Assembly (NCBI GenBank): GCA_963705165.1
Contig: CAVPJD010000031.1
Location: 100,872 to 164,871, forward strand
Length of the DNA stretch: 64,000 bases
Origin: an uncultured delta proteobacterium
GTDB lineage: Bacteria; Desulfobacterota; Syntrophia; Syntrophales; UBA2192
Direction: 5' to 3'
Shown: positions 1,806-45,086 of the stretch, in pieces
Layout: each line of letters starts with the position of its first letter
How positions within the stretch are numbered: the first letter of the stretch is position 1
The notes under the pieces: generated by a model
Database searches by the model: none
What the model was told of the DNA's origin: nothing
What the model saw: the letters and a program-made list of their open reading frames with translations, nothing else
Program-made: the position numbers and the translations under genes

Positions 1806-2259
1806 ATGAAAAAGAAGCTTTCAACGATTCTCTTGCTGTCGCTGCGTTCTTCTGCTGGCGGGACAGATCGGTTACGCCGCCGACCGGATCGTCGTATCCA
1901 CGGACAAGGCGCCGAAGGCCATCGGCCCCTATTCCCAGGCCATCCGGTACGGGGACATGCTCTTCGTCTCGGGCATGATCCCCATCGACCCAAAAACCAA
2001 CGAGCTCTCCAAGGGGGACATCGAGGTCCAGGCGACGCTTGTTCTGGACAACATCAAGGCCGTCGTCGAGGCGGCGGGATTCAGCATGAAAAACGTCCTG
2101 AAGGCCGAGGTGTTCATGAAAGACCTGAAGGACTTCGGCAAGTACAACGCGATCTACGTGAAGTACTTCCCCCAGGACCCGCCTGCCCGCGTCACCGTGC
2201 AGGCCGCGGCCCTGCCCCGTGACGTGCTCATCGAGATTTCCGTGACCTGCGGAAAGTAG
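1806..2259 (+). CDS. RidA/YjgF family protein with N-terminal signal peptide; one frameshift near 1840
   Basis: APKAIGPYSQA, FVSGMIP, PPARVTV..LP..VLIEI; MKKKLSTIL...VLLLAGQIGYA|A leader after frame correction. Confidence 0.85.
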
Positions 2260-2265
2260 AAACAG

Positions 2266-2302
2266 AAGGGGTCAGGCGCTTTTAACGGCCTGACCCCTTT
2301 TT
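2266..2302. terminator. Bidirectional Rho-independent terminator
   Basis: AAGGGGTCAGG...CCTGACCCCTTTTT between convergent genes. Confidence 0.75.
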
Positions 2303-2347
2303 GTGTGCCTGTCGCAGATCCCCCTCAGTCGCAAAACCGAGCCCGGT

Positions 2348-3190
2348 TTAACCCTTCGGTTCCGCAGTTTCAACTGCCGGCGGCATGGCGGTTTCCTTAA
2401 CCTCCGCCGGTTTATCAGCCGGCGCCTCCGCGACGGATTCGGCCGGTGCCGGAACGTCCTCCGATCCTGCGGCCTCTTCGGTCGGGGTTGCCGAAGGCTC
2501 TGTCCTGTCCTCCGGTTCCGCGCCTTCGATTTCAGCAATCCAGAGCGGGTGGCGGTGCTCGGCGTAATCCAGGCGGACGGCACCGGTCAGGATCCCCCGC
2601 AGCATCGGCCGGTTCGGCTTCAGGACAATCGCCGCCATGTGGGCGAGAAAGGCGAGGGCGAAGAGGACGAACCCGATGTTGTGGACCCAGGTGGCCCAGA
2701 GGACAACCGCGTAGGACATGTCCGGGGCGTAAATGTTCTTGTACGTCTTCACGAGCCCCGAGACGATCAGCATGGTAATGATCGCGGCCATGCCGACGTA
2801 GGCCAGGCGCTGCTCCGGCAGGTACTTGTGAAAGGGCGGCTCCTTTCCCTTGCCGAAAAAGCTCTTCATCACTTCGATCGACGTCCGCAGGTCCCCCTTG
2901 CGGGGAAGCATCCCCCGGTCGCCCCGCAGCCCGTGATAGACGGCGTGGAACAGGGCGGCGGCGACAAAGACGATCGACGCCGCGTAGTGGACATTGAGCG
3001 AAACCATGTAATCGCCCGCCCAGGCGAGGCCCGGCACGGAGTTGATGTAGTAGCGGCTGCCCATGGGCAGCTGAAACATACCGGACAAGAGGAGCGCGAG
3101 ACCGGACAGGGCTACGGCCCAGTGCTCGGCGAGCTCGACGATGCTGTGACGGACCACGCTGTTTTCTTCTCGGACAATCCTGTCAGACAT
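2348..3190 (-). CDS. Di-heme cytochrome b membrane anchor (FdnI/PhsC-like) with acidic low-complexity tail
   Basis: RH...EHW, HY..., KY...QRLAY, H..GF...H, four TM helices, YAEHRHPLW; ATG 3190 overlaps the upstream stop. Confidence 0.85.
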   Translation of the reverse strand: MSDRIVREENSVVRHSIVELAEHWAVALSGLALLLSGMFQLPMGSRYYINSVPGLAWAGDYMVSLNVHYAASIVFVAAALFHAVYHGLRGDRGMLPRKGDLRTSIEVMKSFFGKGKEPPFHKYLPEQRLAYVGMAAIITMLIVSGLVKTYKNIYAPDMSYAVVLWATWVHNIGFVLFALAFLAHMAAIVLKPNRPMLRGILTGAVRLDYAEHRHPLWIAEIEGAEPEDRTEPSATPTEEAAGSEDVPAPAESVAEAPADKPAEVKETAMPPAVETAEPKG

Positions 3191-4199
3191 CCTTCTTCCC
3201 GCCCTCCGCCAGCTTCGACTTCCGCCCGGCGAGCCACTTGAGCGCCCCCGCCGCACCTGCGACGATCCCGATGGCGGGGGCTGCGAGCACGGCCTTTCCC
3301 AGGCTGTCCGTCCCGGCCATTTGTCTCTCGACACCGGGCTTCATGTCGGGCCTTCCGGGCTCCCTTTTCATGGCCTTGTTGATGCGGTCGAAGGACACCG
3401 GCGAGACGTAGAACGTCGAGGTGCCGCCGTTCTCGCTCTTTCCGTAAATGTGGCCGTTCATCTGCCGGGCCCGGTCTTCCGCCAGCGCAATGATTTCCTG
3501 GCGAGGCCCGATGAGCATCGCCTTCCTGGGGCATGCGTCGATGCAGCCCGGCTGCTTTCCCTGGCCAAGGCGCTCATTGCAGAGGTCGCACTTGTACATG
3601 ACGCCGTTTCCCATGTAATCCGGCAGGACATGGAGGTAAATGCCGACGCCTGACTGGCGCTGCGGGATCTCCCAGGGGCAGACCGTCTTGCACTTGGCTC
3701 CGCCGAAGCACAAGTCCTGGTCGATGACAACCGCCCCGTTTTCGTGTTTATGATTTGCCGAGAACGGGCAAATGGTCGCACAGGCGGGGTTGTCGCAGTG
3801 CATGCAGCGCCTCGGGACGAAAAGGGTTTTCGGTTCTCCGTCCTGTTCGACTTCAGCCCTTTGCACGTAAAGGTAATTGTACGGGGTGAGGCGGTTTGAC
3901 ACTTCCCGCTTCCGGGACCAGTCCTCGACCGTTTTTCTCGGCCAGGGCACCGGGATGGGGTCGGCAACGGGGGGGGTCGTGTCCCTGTTGATCGTTTTGC
4001 AGGCGGAGACACAGGCCGGGAGCGCCAAATCGGGACAGCCGTCGCAGAGGCTGAGATCGATGAGCGTCGCCAGTCGCCCGGTTTCCCCGGCCCGCACTTT
4101 TTCCGGCCATGCAAGGCACGACGCCGCAAACACACCTGCCGACGTCTTCAGAAAGGATCTGCGGCTTATCCCTGGAATGCTGTTCGATTTCTTCATCAT
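3183..4199 (-). CDS. Tat-exported 4Fe-4S dicluster electron-transfer subunit (PhsB/PsrB/HybA-like) with C-terminal anchor
   Basis: SRRSFLK Tat motif; CDGC-x7-CVSAC, CMHCDNPACATICP, CFGGAKCKTVCP, KCDLC...CIDACP. Confidence 0.88.
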   Translation of the reverse strand: MMKKSNSIPGISRRSFLKTSAGVFAASCLAWPEKVRAGETGRLATLIDLSLCDGCPDLALPACVSACKTINRDTTPPVADPIPVPWPRKTVEDWSRKREVSNRLTPYNYLYVQRAEVEQDGEPKTLFVPRRCMHCDNPACATICPFSANHKHENGAVVIDQDLCFGGAKCKTVCPWEIPQRQSGVGIYLHVLPDYMGNGVMYKCDLCNERLGQGKQPGCIDACPRKAMLIGPRQEIIALAEDRARQMNGHIYGKSENGGTSTFYVSPVSFDRINKAMKREPGRPDMKPGVERQMAGTDSLGKAVLAAPAIGIVAGAAGALKWLAGRKSKLAEGGKKDV

Positions 4200-4208
4200 T
4201 GTCCTTCT

Positions 4209-4466
4209 CTACGCCAGATCGATGTACCTTGTCAGGGCCGCCTGAAAATTTTCCCTGCCCTTCCCCGTGTCCGCTTCGGTCATGCACCGGGTCATGTTTG
4301 CCCGGATAATGGCGTTTCCCGTCTTCTTCATCGCCGATGTTACGGCAGAGACCTGTGTGAGGACGTCAACGCAAGGCGCCTGCATCTCGATCATCCGCTG
4401 GAGCCCCCGTACCTGCCCCTCTATGCGCCGGAGGCGCCCCAGGATCTTTCTTCTCTCTTCTTCCAT
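4209..4466 (-). CDS. CsoR/RcnR-family repressor with CstR-type fingerprint (C32, N57, C61)
   Basis: RLRRIEGQVRGLQRMI...PCVDVLTQVSAV...ANMTRC; the Cu-ligand His position is Asn. Confidence 0.88.
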   Translation of the reverse strand: MEEERRKILGRLRRIEGQVRGLQRMIEMQAPCVDVLTQVSAVTSAMKKTGNAIIRANMTRCMTEADTGKGRENFQAALTRYIDLA

Positions 4467-4469
4467 TAT

Positions 4470-4486
4470 ATACCCCCTGGGGGTAT
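4470..4486. promoter_or_regulatory. CsoR/CstR-family operator (autoregulatory)
   Basis: Perfect 17-bp palindrome ATACCCCC-T-GGGGGTAT with C/G tracts, 3 bp upstream of the repressor ATG. Confidence 0.85.
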
Positions 4487-4514
4487 TTATAATCCACCGC
4501 CGGCTCCATGTCAA
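4486..4514 (-). promoter_or_regulatory. sigma70 promoter of repressor-FeS-cytochrome b operon
   Basis: TTGACA(4514-4509)-17 nt-TATAAA(4491-4486). Confidence 0.8.
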
Positions 4515-37519: not shown

Positions 37520-37583
37520 AGCAGACACCTCCTTTTTAGTATGGGGCGTGCGGGACAACCGTCCATGGAGATGCACCGCTCAC

Positions 37584-37670: not shown

Positions 37671-37882
37671 TACAAGCCTCCGGTCCGCGCAGATCGCACA
37701 GCACGTGAAGGAATATGTTGTAAGGCAGCTCGGTCTGAAGGCTTCGTTATCTCTATCGGCTCACGCCGCCCTTTCCTTTAGCGATTTTTTCTTTCTCTGT
37801 CCCGCCCCATGCCGACGAAGCCATTCTGATCGCTCTCCGGAGCGCGATCGAACAGGGCTGAATTGGCGGCCTGCCGCCGTAT

Positions 37883-37899
37883 ATACGCCACGGGGGTAT
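37883..37899. promoter_or_regulatory. Second CsoR/CstR-type operator
   Basis: ATACGCCA-C-GGGGGTAT: right half identical to, left half 2 mismatches from, the 4470-4486 operator. Confidence 0.65.
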
Positions 37900-37923: not shown

Positions 37924-37951
37924 TTGACAATTCTCAGGGTGCCGTTACAAT
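37924..37951 (+). promoter_or_regulatory. sigma70 promoter of cytochrome/rhodanese operon
   Basis: TTGACA-16 nt-TACAAT, 34 nt upstream of ATG 37985. Confidence 0.7.
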
Positions 37952-37984: not shown

Positions 37985-39244
37985 ATGAAGGCTCGGCTCA
38001 CAATCCTGATCAGCCTGCTCATCGCTCCTCTCCTTCTATTCGTGTCTTCATCGAGCACTGCCAATAACCCCAGCAGCTGCGTCACCTGCCACACCGACGA
38101 GGCCATGCTGAAGAAAACCTGCAAACCCTTCGTGATTCCCGAGGGTGAGGGCGAGGGGTGAGCGGGGGCGCCTCCGCCGGTCAAGGCGGAAACCTACCAC
38201 CTGAGTTTCCTCGTCGACAAAAAGCTCGTCGAGACGGACAAGCACTTCGAGAAGGGCTGCGTCCAGTGCCACAAGGGAAACGACAAAGCAGGACGACAAG
38301 GATGCCGCCCACGAGGGGATGGTGAAGCGCCCCTCCGATGACCTGGCCCTCTGCGGGGAGTGCCACCAGGAGATCGCCGCGAACTACAAAAAATCTCTCC
38401 ACTACACGACGATCGGCCAGCGCAACCGGGTGGTCAAGAGGATGTCGAAGGAGGAGACGAAGGTCTTCGACGAAAAGGTCTTCGAAAAATCCTGCCGGTC
38501 CTGCCACGCCACCTGCGGCGACTGCCACGTGAAATCGCCATCCATCGGCGGGGTGAGCGTCGGCCTCATCAACAAGCACAAGTTCGTGCGGAAAGACGAG
38601 GGCAAGACCTGCGCCTTCTGCCATGGCGGCCGCGTCTACCCCGAGTACACAGGCGAGTACGGCGGCAACGCCGACGTCCACTACCAGAAGGGCATGATGT
38701 GCATGGACTGCCACACCATGGACGAGATCCACGGCGACGGCAGGGCCTACGCGCAAAAGGAGGAGGTCCGCGACCGGCCCGCGCTGCACCGACTGCCACG
38801 AGCCCGGCAGGGAGACGAAGCTGACGGCCCGAGTGGCCCACCTCAAGCACAGCGAGACGGCCAGCTGCTTACGCCTGTCACTCGGCGGGCGAGTACCGGC
38901 AGTGCTACGACTGCCATCTCGGCGGCGGCTCCGAGGCCAAGCCGGGCTTTTTCCTGGGGACGAGCCCGAGGAACCGCAAGGAGATCACAACGCTGCGCGT
39001 CATCCCCACGGTGCGTGAAAGCTTCAAACCCGCAGGAATCCAGCAGGCGAACTTCGACGCCCTGCCCAACTACTGGGACGCTCCGATCCACAACATCCGC
39101 AAGCGCACGGAGAGGACCCGAAACTGCGACACTTGCCACGAAGACAGGAAGGGCTTTCTCACCATGGAGACCCTCCTGAAGAACAGCTCCCGGACGAACC
39201 TGGAGCTGATCCATAAACCGAAACCCATACCCATCAGCAAATAA
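37985..39244 (+). CDS. Periplasmic 11-heme cytochrome c selenoprotein (Sec59, UGA 38159-38161); three apparent frameshifts (~38290, ~38782, ~38868)
   Basis: Signal peptide, CVTCH, EGEGEG-TGA-AGAPPP in frame to CVQCH; further CGECH, CRSCH, CGDCH, CAFCH, CMDCH, CTDCH, CYACH, CYDCH, CDTCH; SECIS-like hairpin after TGA. Confidence 0.82.
38173..38190 (+). promoter_or_regulatory. Bacterial SECIS element
   Basis: TCCGCC-GGTCAA-GGCGGA hairpin; G-initiated loop starts 18 nt after UGA. Confidence 0.75.
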
Positions 39245-39254
39245 GGAGGTTTTT

Positions 39255-40139
39255 ATGGTCAAAGCGAAAATGAAAGTCATGGTAGGCCTGCTGGCCGTTC
39301 TTCTGCTCCTGCCGGCCGCGGCATCGCGGGAGAGCCCTTCGTCACGACGGAGTGGCTCCAGGCCAATCTTTCCAAGGTAACGGTTCTCGATGTCCGCAAG
39401 GTGGAAGAATACAACGCCGGCCACATCCCCGGCGCCATCAACGTTTTCTATGGCGTTTGGGGCATTAAGAAGGGGGTGCTTCATCAACGAGCTGCCCGCC
39501 GACGACGATCTGAGGGACATCCTGTCGGCCAACGGCATCGAGCCCACCACGAAGGTTGTGGTGGTCTCGAAGAACGAGACCATGCCGTTTCGCACGGATG
39601 CGACACGGGTCGCCTGGACCCTGCGATACGCAGGCGTGGAGAACGTGGCCGTCCTGAGCGGAGGCATCGAGAAATGGGAAGCGGAAAAGAGGGCCCTTTC
39701 GAAGGACGCCGTGAAACCCAAGGCGAAGGCCTACAAGGGCAAGTTAAACAAGCAGTACACTGCGAACAAGGCCTACGTCACGGGCGCCATGGGCAAGGCT
39801 GTGCTCGTCGATGTCCGGCCGCCGGAATTCTACAAGGGCGAGAAGAAGTTGGACTTCGTCGCCAAGACGGGCCGCATCAAGGGCGCCGTGAACCTGCCGC
39901 CCGGAGCGCTGTACAATGCGGACGGCACCTACAAGAGCAAGGCGGAAATCGAGGCTATCGCCAAGCCCGTCGTGGGGGCCGATCTCAACAAGGAGATCAT
40001 CGTATATTGCGACACCGGAAAGGTCTGCACGAACTGGTGGCTGGCCCTCAACGACCTGCTGGGCTACAACAACGTGAAGGTCTATGACGGCTCCTCCATG
40101 GAATGGATGGCGGACCCCGCTGCGCCTTCAGAGCCCTGA
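39255..40139 (+). CDS. Secreted tandem-domain rhodanese/sulfurtransferase; frameshifts near 39325 and 39475
   Basis: AAGGAGG SD, signal peptide, LDVR..EEYNAGHIPGA, L.GG...W, DVRP..FY.G, GRI.GA, IVYCDTG active-site loop, VYDGS..EW. Confidence 0.88.
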
Positions 40140-40265: not shown

Positions 40266-42267
40266 ATGAGCCGGTTCAAGAAAGCCTGTGTCCTCCTTCT
40301 CCTGGCCCTGTTCGTGCCGCTCACGCTGGATGCCGCGCGCGCGCCGGACTGGAAGCACGAGGACATCTGGCTCAAGAACGAGCAGGGGCAGCGCATCACC
40401 CCCACGAGAAACAGCGCCGACGCCTATTCGCCCCACCGGACCTGCGGGACCTGCCACGGCTACATGACCATCACGTCGGGCACCCACTTCCAGCAGGGCT
40501 TCGACGAGATGAAGGACGGCTACGACCCGAAGCGCCCCTGGGTCCTCTCCCCCGGCAACTTCGGCAAGGGGGGAGACCCGGGTACATTCACCGAGCGGGT
40601 CGCCGCGAAAAAAAACACCAGTGCCCGCGACATGGGGCACTCCACCTACGACTGGATCGCCGCCGCGGCGGCAAGGGCCAGGTCATCGCCACGGCGTCCG
40701 GCTGGACCCACCCCGGCGGCGGGCCGATGGAGTTCGGCAGAAAAGCCGACGGCAGGCGCGACCTCTCGAAAAACCTCGTCCAGGGGGAGCCCCTGAAGCC
40801 CCTGCCTCTGGACGGGGACTACACCTCCCGCCACACCCCCGACGGGAAAAGCCGTTTCCGGGAGAGCGGTGTCGTGGAGGGGGACTGCCTGATGTGCCAC
40901 CTGAAGGGCTATCGCCTCGATCAGAGAAACCGGCAGCTCGGACTCCGCAACTACCGCTGGGCAGCCACGGCGGGCGCAGGGCTGGGCGAGATCCGGGGCT
41001 CCGTTTTCGCCTTCGACAACCCCGAGGCCGGGCCCGCCGTCGAGGGATACGACAGGGGGTCGTGGAACTTCTCGACCCGCCCCGCCGTCCGGTACGCATG
41101 GGATGACCGCAAACTCTTTACGCCCGAAGGGAAATTCAAGGGGAGCCGGCTGATCAACAAATCCGTCGAACCGGACAACTGCACCCAGTGTCACCGCCAG
41201 ATGGACGGCCAGAAGTCGGGAACCCTCTACCTGCCCGCGGGCGACCTTCACCTCAAGGCGGGGCTTCGCTGCACCGACTGCCACACCCTGGCGGGAAAGA
41301 CGCAGGCCGAACGCCTCCGGCACCGGATCGGCAAGGGGTGGTCGCCCACGGCCACCGCCCGCAACGACCTCGACGGGGCGGGAATGAAGACCTGCGCGAA
41401 CTGCCACCTCGAGGGCCAGTACAAGCCAACCCGGGCGGGCATGCCCAAGGAAGCCAAAAACCCCGAGAACATCCACCGCTCGCTCTTCCACAAGGCGACG
41501 TTCCATTTCTACCTGCTTCACTGCTCGGCCTGCCACGCCTCGGAAAGAAAGACCCGCAGCGTCTATCTCGTGGACTACAGCACGGGACAGCCGGCGTGGT
41601 ACTCGACGGACAAGGCCGCCCTCGTCACCCGACCCGACGACATGAAACAGATGGCGTCGGAGCTCTGGAAGCCCTGGATGGACCGACACGAACGCGCCAG
41701 GGGCGATGGCGAGCGTTATGTCCCGGCAGTGCCCAAGGTGACGCAGTGGTTCGGGGAGATGATCTCCGAGGGAATCGTAAGGCCCATCGGTCTCGAACAC
41801 GTGAGGAAAGCGGCTGCGGGCCAGAAAAAGCTCACGGTGGTCGAAGTCGCCACCCATAACGGCGAGAAGGTGAAGCAGCACCACGGTGGCCACCGAGCAG
41901 GACATGCTCCTCATGATCAAGGCCCTGAGCGACATGGGATTTAAAAACGTCGTCTTCGTAGCCGATCAGCTCTACGAACTGAAGAAGGACAAGATCCAGG
42001 GACGCCCCGTGCCGGCGCTGACGGGGGCCGTGATGTTCCCGATCTACCACGGCAACCTGCCCGTGTCGGCGAAAAAGACCCTGGGACAGAAGGGCAATAA
42101 AGACGGGTGCGCGGACTGCCATGCCGACAACTCGCCCTTCTTCACGAAGCTCAAGGTGCAGGGGCGTGGGGAAATTCCTCAAGGACAGTTACCCGACCCC
42201 GAAGGAGCCCATCGCGGAGCCGCAGATGGTGGACTGGGGACTGACGGGAGTGCCGGCCTCGGAGTAG
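40266..42267 (+). CDS. Periplasmic multiheme cytochrome c (7 CxxCH); frameshifts near 40665, 41880, 42165
   Basis: Signal peptide; CGTCH, CLMCH, CTQCH, CTDCH, CANCH, CSACH, CADCH across frames; ends WGLTGVPASE-TAG. Confidence 0.8.
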
Positions 42268-42339: not shown

Positions 42340-43117
42340 ATGGAAAAGAGCGTGTGCTTCATGACTGTGCCAAATACTCTCTGATGCTCGGTGGATCATG
42401 CCTTACGGCATGTGATCCTCTCGTTGCGCTGGCGGCTTGCGGAAAGCCTGCGGAGGCCCCGCCGCCGTGGAAGGTTATCGACGCCTCGACGCTTCGCGCC
42501 ATGATGGCCTCCGACAAGGGACTTCCCGTGTACAACACGATGAGCGAGCTCGAATGCCTCGATCATCGGATTCCCGGTACCCGCTGCCTGGCCTGCGAGG
42601 ATGTCGAGAACAACCCATCCGTATTGCCTGCCGACAAAGGACCGTGACATCGTCTTTTACTGTGAGAGTGCGGGATGCTACCGGAGCTGCCGGGCTGCTG
42701 ATGCGGCCATAAAGGCTGGCTACAAACAGGTTTATATTCTGCAAGACGGGATCCCGGCCTGGAAGCAGGCGGGCTATGCCATGGAGACGATCGAGCGAAT
42801 CCCGCGTGGATCGATCCAGTCGGTGCGGGCCCAGTCGCTCAAGCAGATGCTCACGGAGCGCAAGGACATACTCCTTGTCGATGTCCGCTCGGAGAAGTCC
42901 TACAAGGAAGGCCACATCGAAGGGGCATTGAATATACCGCTGTACCGGTTCAGCAGCAGATACGCCGAGATCCCCCTGGACCGCACGGTGGTGCTCGTCG
43001 ACGACCGCGGGCTTCCGGACGTTCCTGGCGGGGAGCTACCTGGAGATGAAGGGCTACAGGGTCATGAGGCTCTTCGGCGGCATGCAGGGCTGGCAGGAAA
43101 TGAAGGCAGCGAAGTGA
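42340..43117 (+). CDS. Tandem rhodanese-domain lipoprotein; start uncertain, frameshifts near 42640 and 43012
   Basis: LAAC lipobox; HRIPG, IVFYCESAGCYRSC, GYKQVYILQDGIPAWKQAGY; second domain DVRS..SY..GHIEGA with DDRG (Cys-less) loop. Confidence 0.78.
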
Positions 43118-43151
43118 CGGGAAACTCTCCCGAACCAAACGGATGGAATCG

Positions 43152-45019
43152 ATGAAGATCGAGGCAGGACAGAGGCGAAAGGGACTCCGGGCAGGATCTT
43201 CTTCTGCTGGCGGTATTCGCCGTCCTCTGCCTGCCCCTTCCCGCCCCGGCGGCCCAGGACTGCCGGTTCTGTCACGACGAGCCGCTCTACCGCGTCGATT
43301 TCAACAAATCGATCCACGCCAACAACGGCTGCACGAGCTGCCACGTGGGGATCACGAACATCGAGAAGCACCGCGACGGCAAGGAGAAGCCCGCCCCCGT
43401 CGACTGCGGGAGCTGCCACCAGGAGATCGCGAAAGAATACCGGAACAACTTCCATTACATCCAGGAAGACTTCCGCTGCAGCGACTGTCACCGGAACATC
43501 CACTCGATCAGGCAGGACAAGAACAAAAACGTCAAGCTCGCCATCATCGAGAAGTGCACCGAGTGCCACGGCAACGCAGACTACACGGCCTCGGGCCACG
43601 GCGAGGCCGTCCTGAAGGGAAACCAGGACGCGGCGGCCTGCTCGGATTGCCACGGCCTTCACAACACCCGGGTGTTCCACACCTCACTGGAGCAATACCC
43701 CGCCGAGGCGCGCGAGTTCTACACCCAGAAATGCAAGCGCTGCCACGCCGACAGCGCCATGATGAAGCGAAACAACCTCTCGGATAAAATGGTCGCCTAT
43801 TACGAGGGCACCTACCACGGAAAGGTCCAGGAACTGGGCTACCCGGCTCCGGTGGCCGGCTGCGGCGACTGCCACACCAAGCACAACATCCTGCCGAAGG
43901 AGGACCCCCGTTCGAGCATCCACCCCGACAACCTCGAGAAGAACTGCGGACGCTGCCACACGGGCTTCCATACCCGCTTCCTGAGCTACCAGGCGCACCC
44001 CGATTACAAGGACCGGGCCAAATACCCTGCCCTGTACGTCACGTTCCTCCTCATGGGGGCGCTTCTCGTCGGGACGCTCGCTTTCTTCTGGGTCCACACC
44101 ATCCTCTGGTGGCGGAAGGTTTACTGGGAAAACGACCGCATGGAAAGAGAGGGGATCGTGCCGCGCTCGGCGGTCGCAACGGGCGAGGGCCTCCAGCAGG
44201 TGGAGCGTTTCTCCGTCAAGTACCGGATCATGCACGCGCTCCTGGTGATCTCCTTCTTCACGCTCGTGCTGACCGGGTTCCCCCTGAAATATGCCGGGAC
44301 GGAGTGGGCCGCAACGCTCACGCGCCTCTGGGGCGGCGCGCACATGGCAGGGCTCTTCCACCGCGGGGCGGCCTTCCTGCTGATCGTCGGGATGGCCTAT
44401 GTCAGCTTCGAATCCCTGCGTTTCCTCTTCCCCAAGGGCGAGGGCAAGAAGGGCTGGCTCAGCCGGCTGCTCGGCCCCGACTCGCTCTTCCCGAACCTGA
44501 AGGACCTCCAGGACTTCAACGGCAATGATCCGGTGGTTCTTCAACAAGGGCGAGCCGCCGAAATTCGACCGCTGGACCTACTGGGAAAAGTTCGACTTCC
44601 TGGCCGTCTTCTGGGGCATGTTCGCCATCGGCGGCTCCGGGATCCTGCTCTGGAAGCCCGAGTGGTCCTCTTACCTCGTGCCCGGCTGGGTCCTCAACAT
44701 CGCCGCCCTGGTGCACTCCGAGGAGGCGCTGCTGGCGGCCCTGTTCATCTTCACGATCCACTTTTTCAACACGCACTTCATCCCGAACAAGTTCCCCATG
44801 GACCGGCTCATCTTCACGGGGACCTACCGGCTCGAAGAGCTCAAGGAACAGCGGCCCCTGGAATACGAGCGCCTGGTGGCCGAGGGACGCCTGGAGTCCA
44901 TGAAGCGCGGGCACCCGAGCATCCCGCTGAAGCTCATCTCGGCCACTTTCGGCCTGGGAAGCCTGCTGCTGGGTCTTTTCCTGACCGTGGCCATCCTGTG
45001 GTCGATCCTGTTCGGGTAG
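43152..45019 (+). CDS. CbcL-like protein: nine-heme c domain fused to cytochrome b membrane domain; frameshifts near 43190 and 44520
   Basis: CRFCH, CTSCH, CGSCH, CSDCH, CTECH, CSDCH, CKRCH, CGDCH, CGRCH; ERF...RIMH, TGFPLKY, HR, FDRWTYWEKFDFLAVFWG, HSEEALLA..FIFTIHFFN. Confidence 0.85.
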
Positions 45020-45086
45020 GACGGGGATTTCCCTTCATGTTTCACGGACCTTACCCTCGATCGAGCTGACATCCGCATGAAAATGA

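Follow-up and report, generated by a model that had tools for sequence, protein, structure and literature searches.

The 64,000-nucleotide stretch of DNA analysed here (hereafter the window; positions 100,872 to 164,871 of contig CAVPJD010000031.1 in the uncultured Syntrophales assembly GCA_963705165.1) carries a gene for a repressor of the CsoR family, and we propose that its product is a dithiol repressor that regulates its own gene and governs a respiratory regulon of two operons, for which sulfane sulfur would be the most likely inducer, a reading to which we assign a probability of roughly 0.6. Within this proposal, the predicted two-operon regulon is well supported by the sequence comparisons, and the inducer, as judged only indirectly, is probably sulfane sulfur. 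Carrying the argument are the sequence features of the protein and of its two candidate operators, the conservation of both operators, the joint loss of regulator and second site in some related genomes, and a gene order in which the regulator adjoins now one and now the other set of target genes.

Regulator protein and sensing residues

The regulator gene (4209-4466, minus strand) encodes 85 amino acids and, by its translation, has Cys at positions 32 and 61, Asn at 57, and Pro at 31, directly before the first Cys. The PF02583 profile matches it at E 1.7e-24 and 86.5 bits (cut-off 22.8), which places it in the CsoR/RcnR superfamily and bears out the initial annotation, which had described a CsoR-family protein with C32, C61 and Asn57. 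It is the single PF02583 gene above cut-off in the genome (an 84%-complete assembly of 2.71 Mb). Comparing its residues with the motifs laid out in the available text of PMC8643695, we found neither the RcnR/InrS pattern (H-C-H-H or H-C-H-C with an N-terminal His) nor that of FrmR (Pro2 with P-C-H-x), the N-terminus reading M-E-E-E without His and the Y position of the motif being Asn. The NCBIfam RcnR and FrmR models scored 32-41 bits, far under their cut-offs of 133-138, and the RicR model also fell far under its curated cut-off.

CstR, the CsoR-like sulfurtransferase repressor known from S. aureus, E. faecalis, S. pneumoniae/S. mitis and Streptomyces, is defined by an x-C-x-C motif and occupies clusters 4, 10 and 3 of the family network, with N55 of S. 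pneumoniae CstR (SpCstR) replacing the Cu-ligand His (available text of PMC8643695). The window protein has the two Cys and no His at the Y position, and its N57 aligns with N55 of SpCstR (7MQ1). The C-H-C set with a second-shell Tyr that marks the Cu-sensing CsoRs is absent from it, N57 and P31 standing in the relevant places; the same source gives Tyr35 and Glu81 as nearly invariant in true Cu sensors. Across the 121 closest homologues, the window protein included, C32 and C61 are invariant (121/121), Pro precedes the first Cys in 115/121, where Cu sensors have Tyr, and at the Cu-ligand His position 86 have Asn, 18 His, 13 Tyr and 4 Arg. The proposed label of a CstR-type sensor therefore stands as regards the x-C-x-C pair and the correspondence of N57 to SpCstR N55, and does not stand as a description of the whole subfamily, in which Asn57 is not general (86/121) and whose close members fall in a network cluster of their own, cluster 95.

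That cluster of 14 sequences holds SYN_00719 of Syntrophus aciditrophicus together with proteins of Syntrophaceae PtaB.Bin038 (supplementary table of PMC8643695), and it is not discussed in the available main text of Fakhoury et al. 2021 (PMC8643695). With relatives from S. aciditrophicus and PtaB.Bin038 the window protein shares 63% and 77% identity, respectively, and we infer, by organism and length rather than by sequence, that the network entries are these relatives. As a control set we used 78 non-Syntrophales CsoR-family loci among the matches listed, 74 of which encode Y-C..H..C proteins, with CopA/HMA motifs nearby in 54 of the 74. A quick tree of 99 short proteins split the subfamily from all 74 listed Y-C..H..C proteins with a Shimodaira-Hasegawa-like approximate likelihood ratio (SH-aLRT) of 91, in a topology with many unresolved forks and with long branches, that of the Deinococcus row included, which we take as supportive only. 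On the phylogeny and similarity-network check that had been suggested, the regulator stands apart from 74 Cu-type proteins on a poorly resolved tree, and the published network has its relatives in cluster 95, outside the CstR clusters.

The closest outside relative among the matches listed is a Deinococcus protein with a D-C..Y..C pattern, encoded beside a metallo-beta-lactamase-rhodanese fusion of CstB-like architecture. At locus L106 of Deinococcus lacus (2051-4246), a CsoR-family gene with D-C..Y..C is divergent from a CstB-like metallo-beta-lactamase-rhodanese fusion gene, and a TACCCCTGGGGGTA site lies in the locus; the arrangement has the look of a cst-type locus.

An ordinary Cu(I)-sensing CsoR, with the operator similarity at 37883 carrying no regulatory meaning, would sit well with the public annotation of relatives as 'copper-sensing transcriptional repressor CsoR', with the Cu-CsoRs that are the top solved-structure matches, with an operator type shared by many Cu-CsoR loci among the matches listed, and with the C-H-C set of 18/121 subfamily members. 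We nevertheless regard this explanation as very improbable, given Asn for the ligand His and Pro for the second-shell Tyr in the window protein, a His position that drifts between N, H, Y and R, and a second site that is kept with the regulator and decays without it. Its expected neighbours are also missing: no DKTGT (CopA) or HMA motif occurs in the 64-kb window, and neither copA nor copZ lies within the window or next to the regulator in the 34 orthologous loci examined. The CPC-type ATPase of this genome lies on other contigs than the window, and no operator-like sites (at most 4 mismatches) were found near it among the matches listed. Contigs C4 and C34 hold two identical stretches around the CPC-type P1B ATPase motif, which suggests duplicated or redundant contigs in the assembly.

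Two candidate operators and their conservation

Operator 1, a perfect 17-bp palindrome (ATACCCCCTGGGGGTAT, 4470-4486, like operator 2 an unstranded feature), lies 3 nt upstream of the regulator's ATG (4464-4466) and beside a likely sigma-70 promoter of the regulator operon (4487-4514, minus strand), composed of TTGACA (4514-4509), a 16-nt spacer and TATAAA (4492-4487). Because TTGACA-16-TATAAA abuts the palindrome, the transcription start and a G-run that could serve as a Shine-Dalgarno sequence would be expected inside the operator. This promoter was read by eye and from conservation, not from the scanner; the consensus promoter scanner called nothing at this site, since the -10 element ends in A. 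For the perfect operator that the initial annotation had placed over the gene's own start and Shine-Dalgarno sequence, the palindrome is accordingly confirmed at 4470-4486, and the start position is the one expected from the eye-read promoter.

Evaluating this arrangement in other genomes, we found TTGACA and the operator retained in 17/18 non-self orthologous upstream regions and an operator-1-type site in 18 further loci (one of them a 16-bp variant). In every Syntrophales genome whose loci were examined, the regulator has an operator of this type ahead of it, once as the 16-bp variant. The outer 6+6 bases of operator 1 are identical to the core ATACCCTTATGGGGTAT of the S. mitis cst operator printed in PMC8643695 (available text), and as a GC-rich pseudo-palindrome that overlaps a promoter it has the form described for CstR operators. 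The operator type is common at Cu-CsoR control loci as well (among the matches listed), and because so many of these share it, it is not diagnostic for CstR.

Operator 2 (ATACGCCACGGGGGTAT, 37883-37899) lies 33 kb from operator 1 and combines a perfect right half with a left half in which a C-to-G change is conserved. A gap of 24 nt separates its end from the downstream selenocytochrome-cluster promoter (TTGACA-16-TACAAT, 37924-37951, plus strand), which agrees with the consensus at 11/12 positions in the promoter scan and is conserved in the alignment; sequence, promoter scan and conservation alike uphold the reported near copy upstream of the selenocytochrome/rhodanese promoter. The degenerate pattern in the initial annotation matches both sites and nothing else in the 2.71-Mb genome, and shuffles gave 0 expected hits, but it had been fitted to both sites after the fact, and we therefore dropped it as a significance test and replaced it with mismatch scans. 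When as many as 3 mismatches from the perfect palindrome are tolerated, 5 sites appear in the genome, which predicts about 0.09 additional sites in 64 kb; as evidence, the sequence match by itself is therefore weak, and its weight comes from conservation.

Within the genus, the regulator is present in 11/17 other genomes, and for 12 genomes we aligned the spacer that precedes the cytochrome gene. This alignment revealed unalignable DNA followed by an island, GATACGCCAC(C/G)GGGGTAT, then 24-25 variable bases, and finally the conserved -35 and -10 elements. The island is intact in 8 regulator-bearing genomes (G000, G011, G008, G005, G009, G006, G004 and G015). Three genomes that keep the cytochrome cluster (G014, G017 and G016) have no PF02583 gene in a search whose positive control (G009) had one, and in these the site carries 3 mismatches (G014 and G017 each) or is absent (G016); a HybA-like query, in a search without its own positive control, had no match in the same three genomes. 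Because the island is conserved in 8 genomes and decayed or lost in the 3 without a regulator, the match at site 2 is, on the alignment evidence, not due to chance, and the second operator appears to be real and to co-evolve with the regulator.

Scanning with at most 1 mismatch to ATACCCCNNNGGGGTAT, we found, among the matches listed, two sites each in G000, G009 and G006, three sites in G005, which has two regulator copies, and two in G008 together with two on other contigs. The site-2 variant ATACGCCA shares a contig with a regulator gene, 24-37 kb off, in G000, G005, G006, G008 and G009 (matches listed). Contigs C21 and C22 of G005 (loci L006 and L021) bear two near-identical copies of the regulator-FeS-cytochrome b operon (FeS, iron-sulfur), which could represent a duplication, a strain mixture or contamination. 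ATACGC-type candidate sites in G039 and G041 were rejected, having no regulon genes alongside.

Site 2 could also be kept for another reason, namely a different regulator or the divergent riboswitch gene, with the CsoR-family protein controlling its own operon only. Such an explanation draws on the position of the site, upstream of the -35 and not over the promoter, on the cyclic di-GMP (c-di-GMP)-I riboswitch held by the same divergent spacer, and on the lack of a comparable site upstream of the selenocytochrome gene in G091 and G077; it must also accommodate a site that keeps both outer half-site ends of operator 1, that decays exactly in the genomes without the regulator, and that in G008 stays with the cytochrome promoter although the riboswitch block is 3.3 kb distant, as well as a regulator gene that adjoins these target genes in 7 genomes. 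On balance we find it quite improbable, and retain a regulon joined by two operators as the preferred reading. The riboswitch itself (RF01051, 37583-37671, minus strand) scores 81 bits against a gathering score of 35 and precedes a divergent gene for a small membrane protein that starts at 37520 on the minus strand, and a conserved block at about 37720-37800 may be its promoter.

Gene neighbourhoods and respiratory targets

Searching the order Syntrophales, we found a relative of the regulator in 64/251 sampled genomes, spanning 20/70 genera; 63 of these genomes are other than that of the window, and the loci were examined in 34. The regulator is followed by genes for an FeS protein and a cytochrome b in 27/34 and lies beside selenocytochrome and/or rhodanese genes in 7/34. 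Of the latter, G001 and G012 place the regulator and its own operator immediately upstream of the cytochrome gene and have no HybA-like gene; G028 has the order regulator-rhodanese-rhodanese, convergent with a selenocytochrome homologue; G153 and G087 have a rhodanese gene downstream of the regulator; G181 has a rhodanese gene divergent from the regulator with the operator between them; and G162 has the order regulator-selenocytochrome-rhodanese. Close relatives of the regulator are recorded from Syntrophaceae, Syntrophales or Syntrophobacterales bacteria, and one genome encodes a regulator identical to a protein recorded under the name Syntrophus aciditrophicus, with operator, FeS protein and cytochrome b.

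These neighbourhoods bear on whether the protein might be a general thiol-oxidation switch, responding to disulfide stress, oxygen-derived oxidants or quinones without sulfur specificity and adjusting electron-transport modules. The two invariant Cys are the only conserved sensing residues, the commonest partners (FeS protein and cytochrome b) bear no sulfur-specific signature, and characterised CstRs do react, if more slowly, with H2O2, oxidised glutathione (GSSG) and tetrathionate (available text of PMC8643695). The recurrence of rhodanese/selenocytochrome adjacency in 7 genomes and the CstB-like neighbour of the closest outside relative (among the matches listed) argue instead for sulfur, and we consider a switch of this general kind unlikely.

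In the window, the FeS gene (3183-4199, minus strand) starts 9 nt past the regulator's stop codon and is syntenic with the regulator in 27 other genomes. It encodes a HybA/HmcB/FdnH-like, twin-arginine (Tat)-exported 4x[4Fe-4S] protein with a C-terminal anchor (Pfam Fer4_11 and TAT_signal), matched by the NCBIfam models HmcB (3e-40) and HybA (5e-37), both under their cut-offs. The cytochrome b membrane subunit that follows (open frame 2348-3334, minus strand) belongs to the FdnI / Ni-hydrogenase cytochrome b family (PF01292 E 1.8e-16; NCBIfam formate dehydrogenase gamma 7e-13, under cut-off), and translation of it probably begins at the ATG at 3190, which overlaps the upstream gene's stop; distant orthologues align only from residues 33-51 on. 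No catalytic subunit gene follows this pair, the next gene lying on the opposite strand.

Downstream of operator 2, the cluster comprises five genes on the plus strand, and an intact orthologous cluster in a five-contig genome encodes five proteins in the same set. The first gene (37985-39241; orthologue at L072 651-1907) has an in-frame TGA, putatively a selenocysteine (Sec) codon, at 38159-38161 and encodes a multihaem cytochrome c. It is followed by an exported two-domain rhodanese, Rhd1 (39258-40139; PF00581, with NCBIfam matches to 3-mercaptopyruvate sulfurtransferase at 1e-27 and ExtH at 7e-21, both under cut-off), a second large multihaem cytochrome c (40266-42267; 669 aa in the intact orthologue), a lipoprotein-type two-domain rhodanese, Rhd2 (42340-43117, start approximate; identified by profile match and intact orthologue), and a fusion of a multihaem cytochrome c to a cytochrome b membrane domain (43143-45069; cytochrome c7/c3 domains). 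The intact orthologue of the fusion has 624 aa (L072 5775-7649) with a formate dehydrogenase gamma-type cytochrome b region. This protein, with a putative resemblance to CbcL of Geobacter, may be a quinol-oxidising entry point.

The intact orthologue of the selenocytochrome has 418 aa, 11 CxxCH motifs and one TGA (U60), set near the N-terminus in the motif G-E-G-U-A-G-A-P-P-P. The in-frame TGA is retained in 14/14 genus orthologues, with nearly invariant bases after it, and in four complete genomes outside this genus as well. A 6-bp hairpin 14 nt past the TGA folds no better than shuffles (z -0.49), and what underlies the Sec reading is the retention of the TGA and of the almost unchanging bases that follow it, not the fold of a Sec insertion sequence (SECIS). 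A search for SelB in the 84%-complete assembly returned GTPase-domain matches only, under cut-off.

In the window assembly this gene is frameshifted three times (38288, 38776 and 38871). Contigs from three other studies differ from the window by single bases at these positions and at 39323, 39480 and 41877, and again at 42158, 42414, 42635, 43012 and 44518; because the breaks coincide with single-base indels missing from the independent contigs, the frameshifts of the cluster are, to go by this comparison, most likely errors of this assembly. The label of selenocytochrome needs the correction that this gene and the following ones are frameshifted here. Frame breaks also divide a membrane dipeptidase (M19) gene near 815-1674. 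Contigs from an RNA library (run X17) cover the cluster in part, and such contigs cannot show transcription, start or level.

By their domain matches, then, the predicted targets are electron-transfer proteins and periplasmic rhodaneses with no cst-type operon among them, in keeping with the earlier suggestion of respiratory rather than only detoxification genes. The two rhodanese genes downstream of operator 2 give the regulon the sulfurtransferases expected of a CstR, and the genes annotated in the window include no persulfide dioxygenase, SQR or TauE.

A dithiol sensor of selenium or tellurium oxyanions, taking up selenite as a Cys-S-Se-S-Cys bridge and controlling selenite/tellurite reduction, would likewise suit targets that include a selenoprotein cytochrome and rhodaneses, but selenite is much scarcer than sulfane sulfur in sulfidic anoxic habitats. 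The thematically similar Geobacter ext cluster has been linked to selenite/tellurite reduction (available text of PMC5877670), and its selenocytochrome MccSep also reduces selenite, although it favours polysulfide about sevenfold (available text of PMC13510729); rhodanese association is, moreover, a hallmark of sulfur-type cst operons (PMC8643695, available text). We judge a selenium or tellurium sensor rather unlikely, and sulfane sulfur remains our preferred inducer.

The Geobacter cluster (extHIJKLMNOPQS, with MccSep as ExtKL) offers the closest theme. Its multihaem selenocytochrome is described, in the available text of PMC13510729 and PMC5877670, as a polysulfide reductase essential for S0 respiration, encoded in a rhodanese-containing cluster. 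Both sets of genes combine a rhodanese, a Sec-containing multihaem cytochrome, other multihaem cytochromes, an FeS protein and a cytochrome b. The window genes are, however, not orthologues of the ext genes: the NCBIfam Ext models (ExtH, ExtM, ExtN and ExtO, of the Geobacter selenite/tellurite operon) match far under their cut-offs, the FeS protein is of HybA type here and a Rieske protein there, and no porin gene was seen. Compared with solved structures, the window selenocytochrome gave nothing below E 0.07, and a sequence relationship to MccSep was rejected on that ground. The Geobacter cluster is reported as Fur-regulated (available text of PMC5877670), the available text of PMC5877670 and of PMC13510729 mentions no CsoR-type regulator, and the 2026 description of the MccSep polysulfide reductase in Geobacter does not mention regulation (PMC13510729).

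Proposed mechanism, known systems and biological meaning

In the mechanism that we propose, sensing would depend on a Cys32-Cys61' thiol pair, not on a metal site. The reduced tetramer would sit on operator 1, over its own -10 element and transcription start, and so shut off the operon for the regulator, the periplasmic HybA-like FeS protein and the cytochrome b; it would also occupy the weaker-looking operator 2, beside the promoter of the cluster 33 kb off, and binding at both operators would make the two transcription units one regulon. Sulfane sulfur, as persulfide or polysulfide, would crosslink or persulfidate the two cysteines, the modified protein would leave the DNA, and its release would turn on a sulfur-handling electron chain in the periplasm, linked to quinones. 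We favour sulfane sulfur as the trigger because of the motif, the recurrent rhodanese neighbours and the precedent of MccSep as a polysulfide reductase.

Set beside the known CstRs, the window system shares the fold family, the x-C-x-C pair, an Asn at the Cu-ligand His position as in SpCstR N55, a 17-bp ATACCC-N5-GGGTAT operator over a promoter, and rhodanese genes in the regulon. It differs in that its relatives form the small separate cluster 95, that its host is a Gram-negative strict anaerobe, that the 'wedge' residue is variable (N, H, Y or R), and that a second, distant operator lies upstream of a -35 element. The targets differ as well: those of CstR are cytoplasmic detoxification enzymes (CstA, CstB, SQR and CoA-persulfide reductase), whereas those proposed here are respiratory proteins of the periplasm and the membrane (FeS protein, cytochrome b, multihaem cytochromes and a selenoprotein). 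With the Cu(I)-CsoRs of M. tuberculosis, B. subtilis, Geobacillus (4M1P) and Streptomyces (4ADZ), the regulator shares PF02583, both Cys, the operator type, autoregulation and its highest solved-structure scores (55 bits), and it departs from them in having no His ligand, no Tyr before the first Cys and no copA/copZ neighbours, and in the position of its subfamily on the tree, apart from the 74 listed Y-C..H..C proteins. SqrR/BigR of the ArsR family, found in Rhodobacter and relatives, are dithiol repressors that respond to sulfane sulfur and whose regulons extend past detoxification into energy metabolism; they have another protein fold and other operators than the window regulator. Our literature search found no report that links a CsoR-type regulator with sulfur respiration, or with Syntrophales or Desulfobacterota. 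From the sequences alone, the regulator would best be read as one of a separate CsoR-family clade whose chemistry is CstR-like and which two operators connect to respiratory genes.

A number of observations pull the other way. Position 57 is His in 18/121 homologues, the S. aciditrophicus-identical protein included, and these His57 members of the subfamily could still bind Cu(I); the solved-structure scores favour Cu-CsoR (55 bits) over SpCstR (48.6 bits), and the close relatives belong to cluster 95 and not to the CstR clusters 3, 4 and 10. Site 2 is centred near -69 and overlaps neither -35, -10 nor start, which is unusual for a repressor; the regulator could act there differently or weakly, and the site might interfere with upstream promoter contacts or act otherwise. 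Site 2 has 2 mismatches in G002 despite the presence of the regulator. The genomes compared are kin and hence not independent observations, and their conservation is therefore to be read as a consistent pattern, not as a statistic. In G091 and G077, two complete genomes of another genus, the 400 nt that precede the selenocytochrome gene contain no operator-like sequence even when 4 mismatches are allowed, and the two-operator wiring is thus seen within one genus only; this other genus is that of the genome with the S. aciditrophicus-identical regulator, and in G238 and G087, which are likewise complete genomes from outside the window's genus, the DNA upstream of the selenocytochrome gene is coding. 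MccSep has 5 haems and its Sec at U325; the window selenocytochrome has 11 haems, and its Sec lies near the N-terminus, at about residue 59-60. With no solved-structure match for the window protein, the polysulfide analogy is one of theme only. Finally, it is by inference and not by experiment that we arrive at DNA binding, at repression (at site 2 especially), at the identity of the inducer and at the substrate of the cytochromes.

Going further, Syntrophales may carry a hitherto unrecognised molybdenum-free polysulfide/S0 respiration chain that has the new CsoR-family dithiol-sensor clade as its sulfane-sulfur on-switch, an idea that we hold only tentatively and think less likely than not. 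In such a chain, quinone-linked modules, namely the HybA-type FeS protein with cytochrome b and the c/b fusion, would feed the 11-haem selenocytochrome, served by the periplasmic rhodaneses. If it is true, 'obligate' syntrophs could swap interspecies electron transfer for sulfur respiration once polysulfide appears.

Because the S. aciditrophicus-identical protein heads the same regulator-FeS-cytochrome b operon, the first half of the model is testable in a cultured organism. In the 2021 family network, the clade to which the protein belongs is represented by no more than a small cluster that has gone unstudied, and the regulon proposed here would give a concrete set of partners, and hence a suggested physiological cue, to an unannotated FeS/cytochrome b pair and to a new multihaem selenocytochrome. 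Known CsoR-family persulfide sensors come from Gram-positive bacteria, where they turn on cytoplasmic sulfide detoxification; here the same sensing architecture would be wired to membrane and periplasmic electron transport in strictly anaerobic syntrophs, and the regulon would thereby tie sulfur sensing to respiration, beyond detoxification alone.

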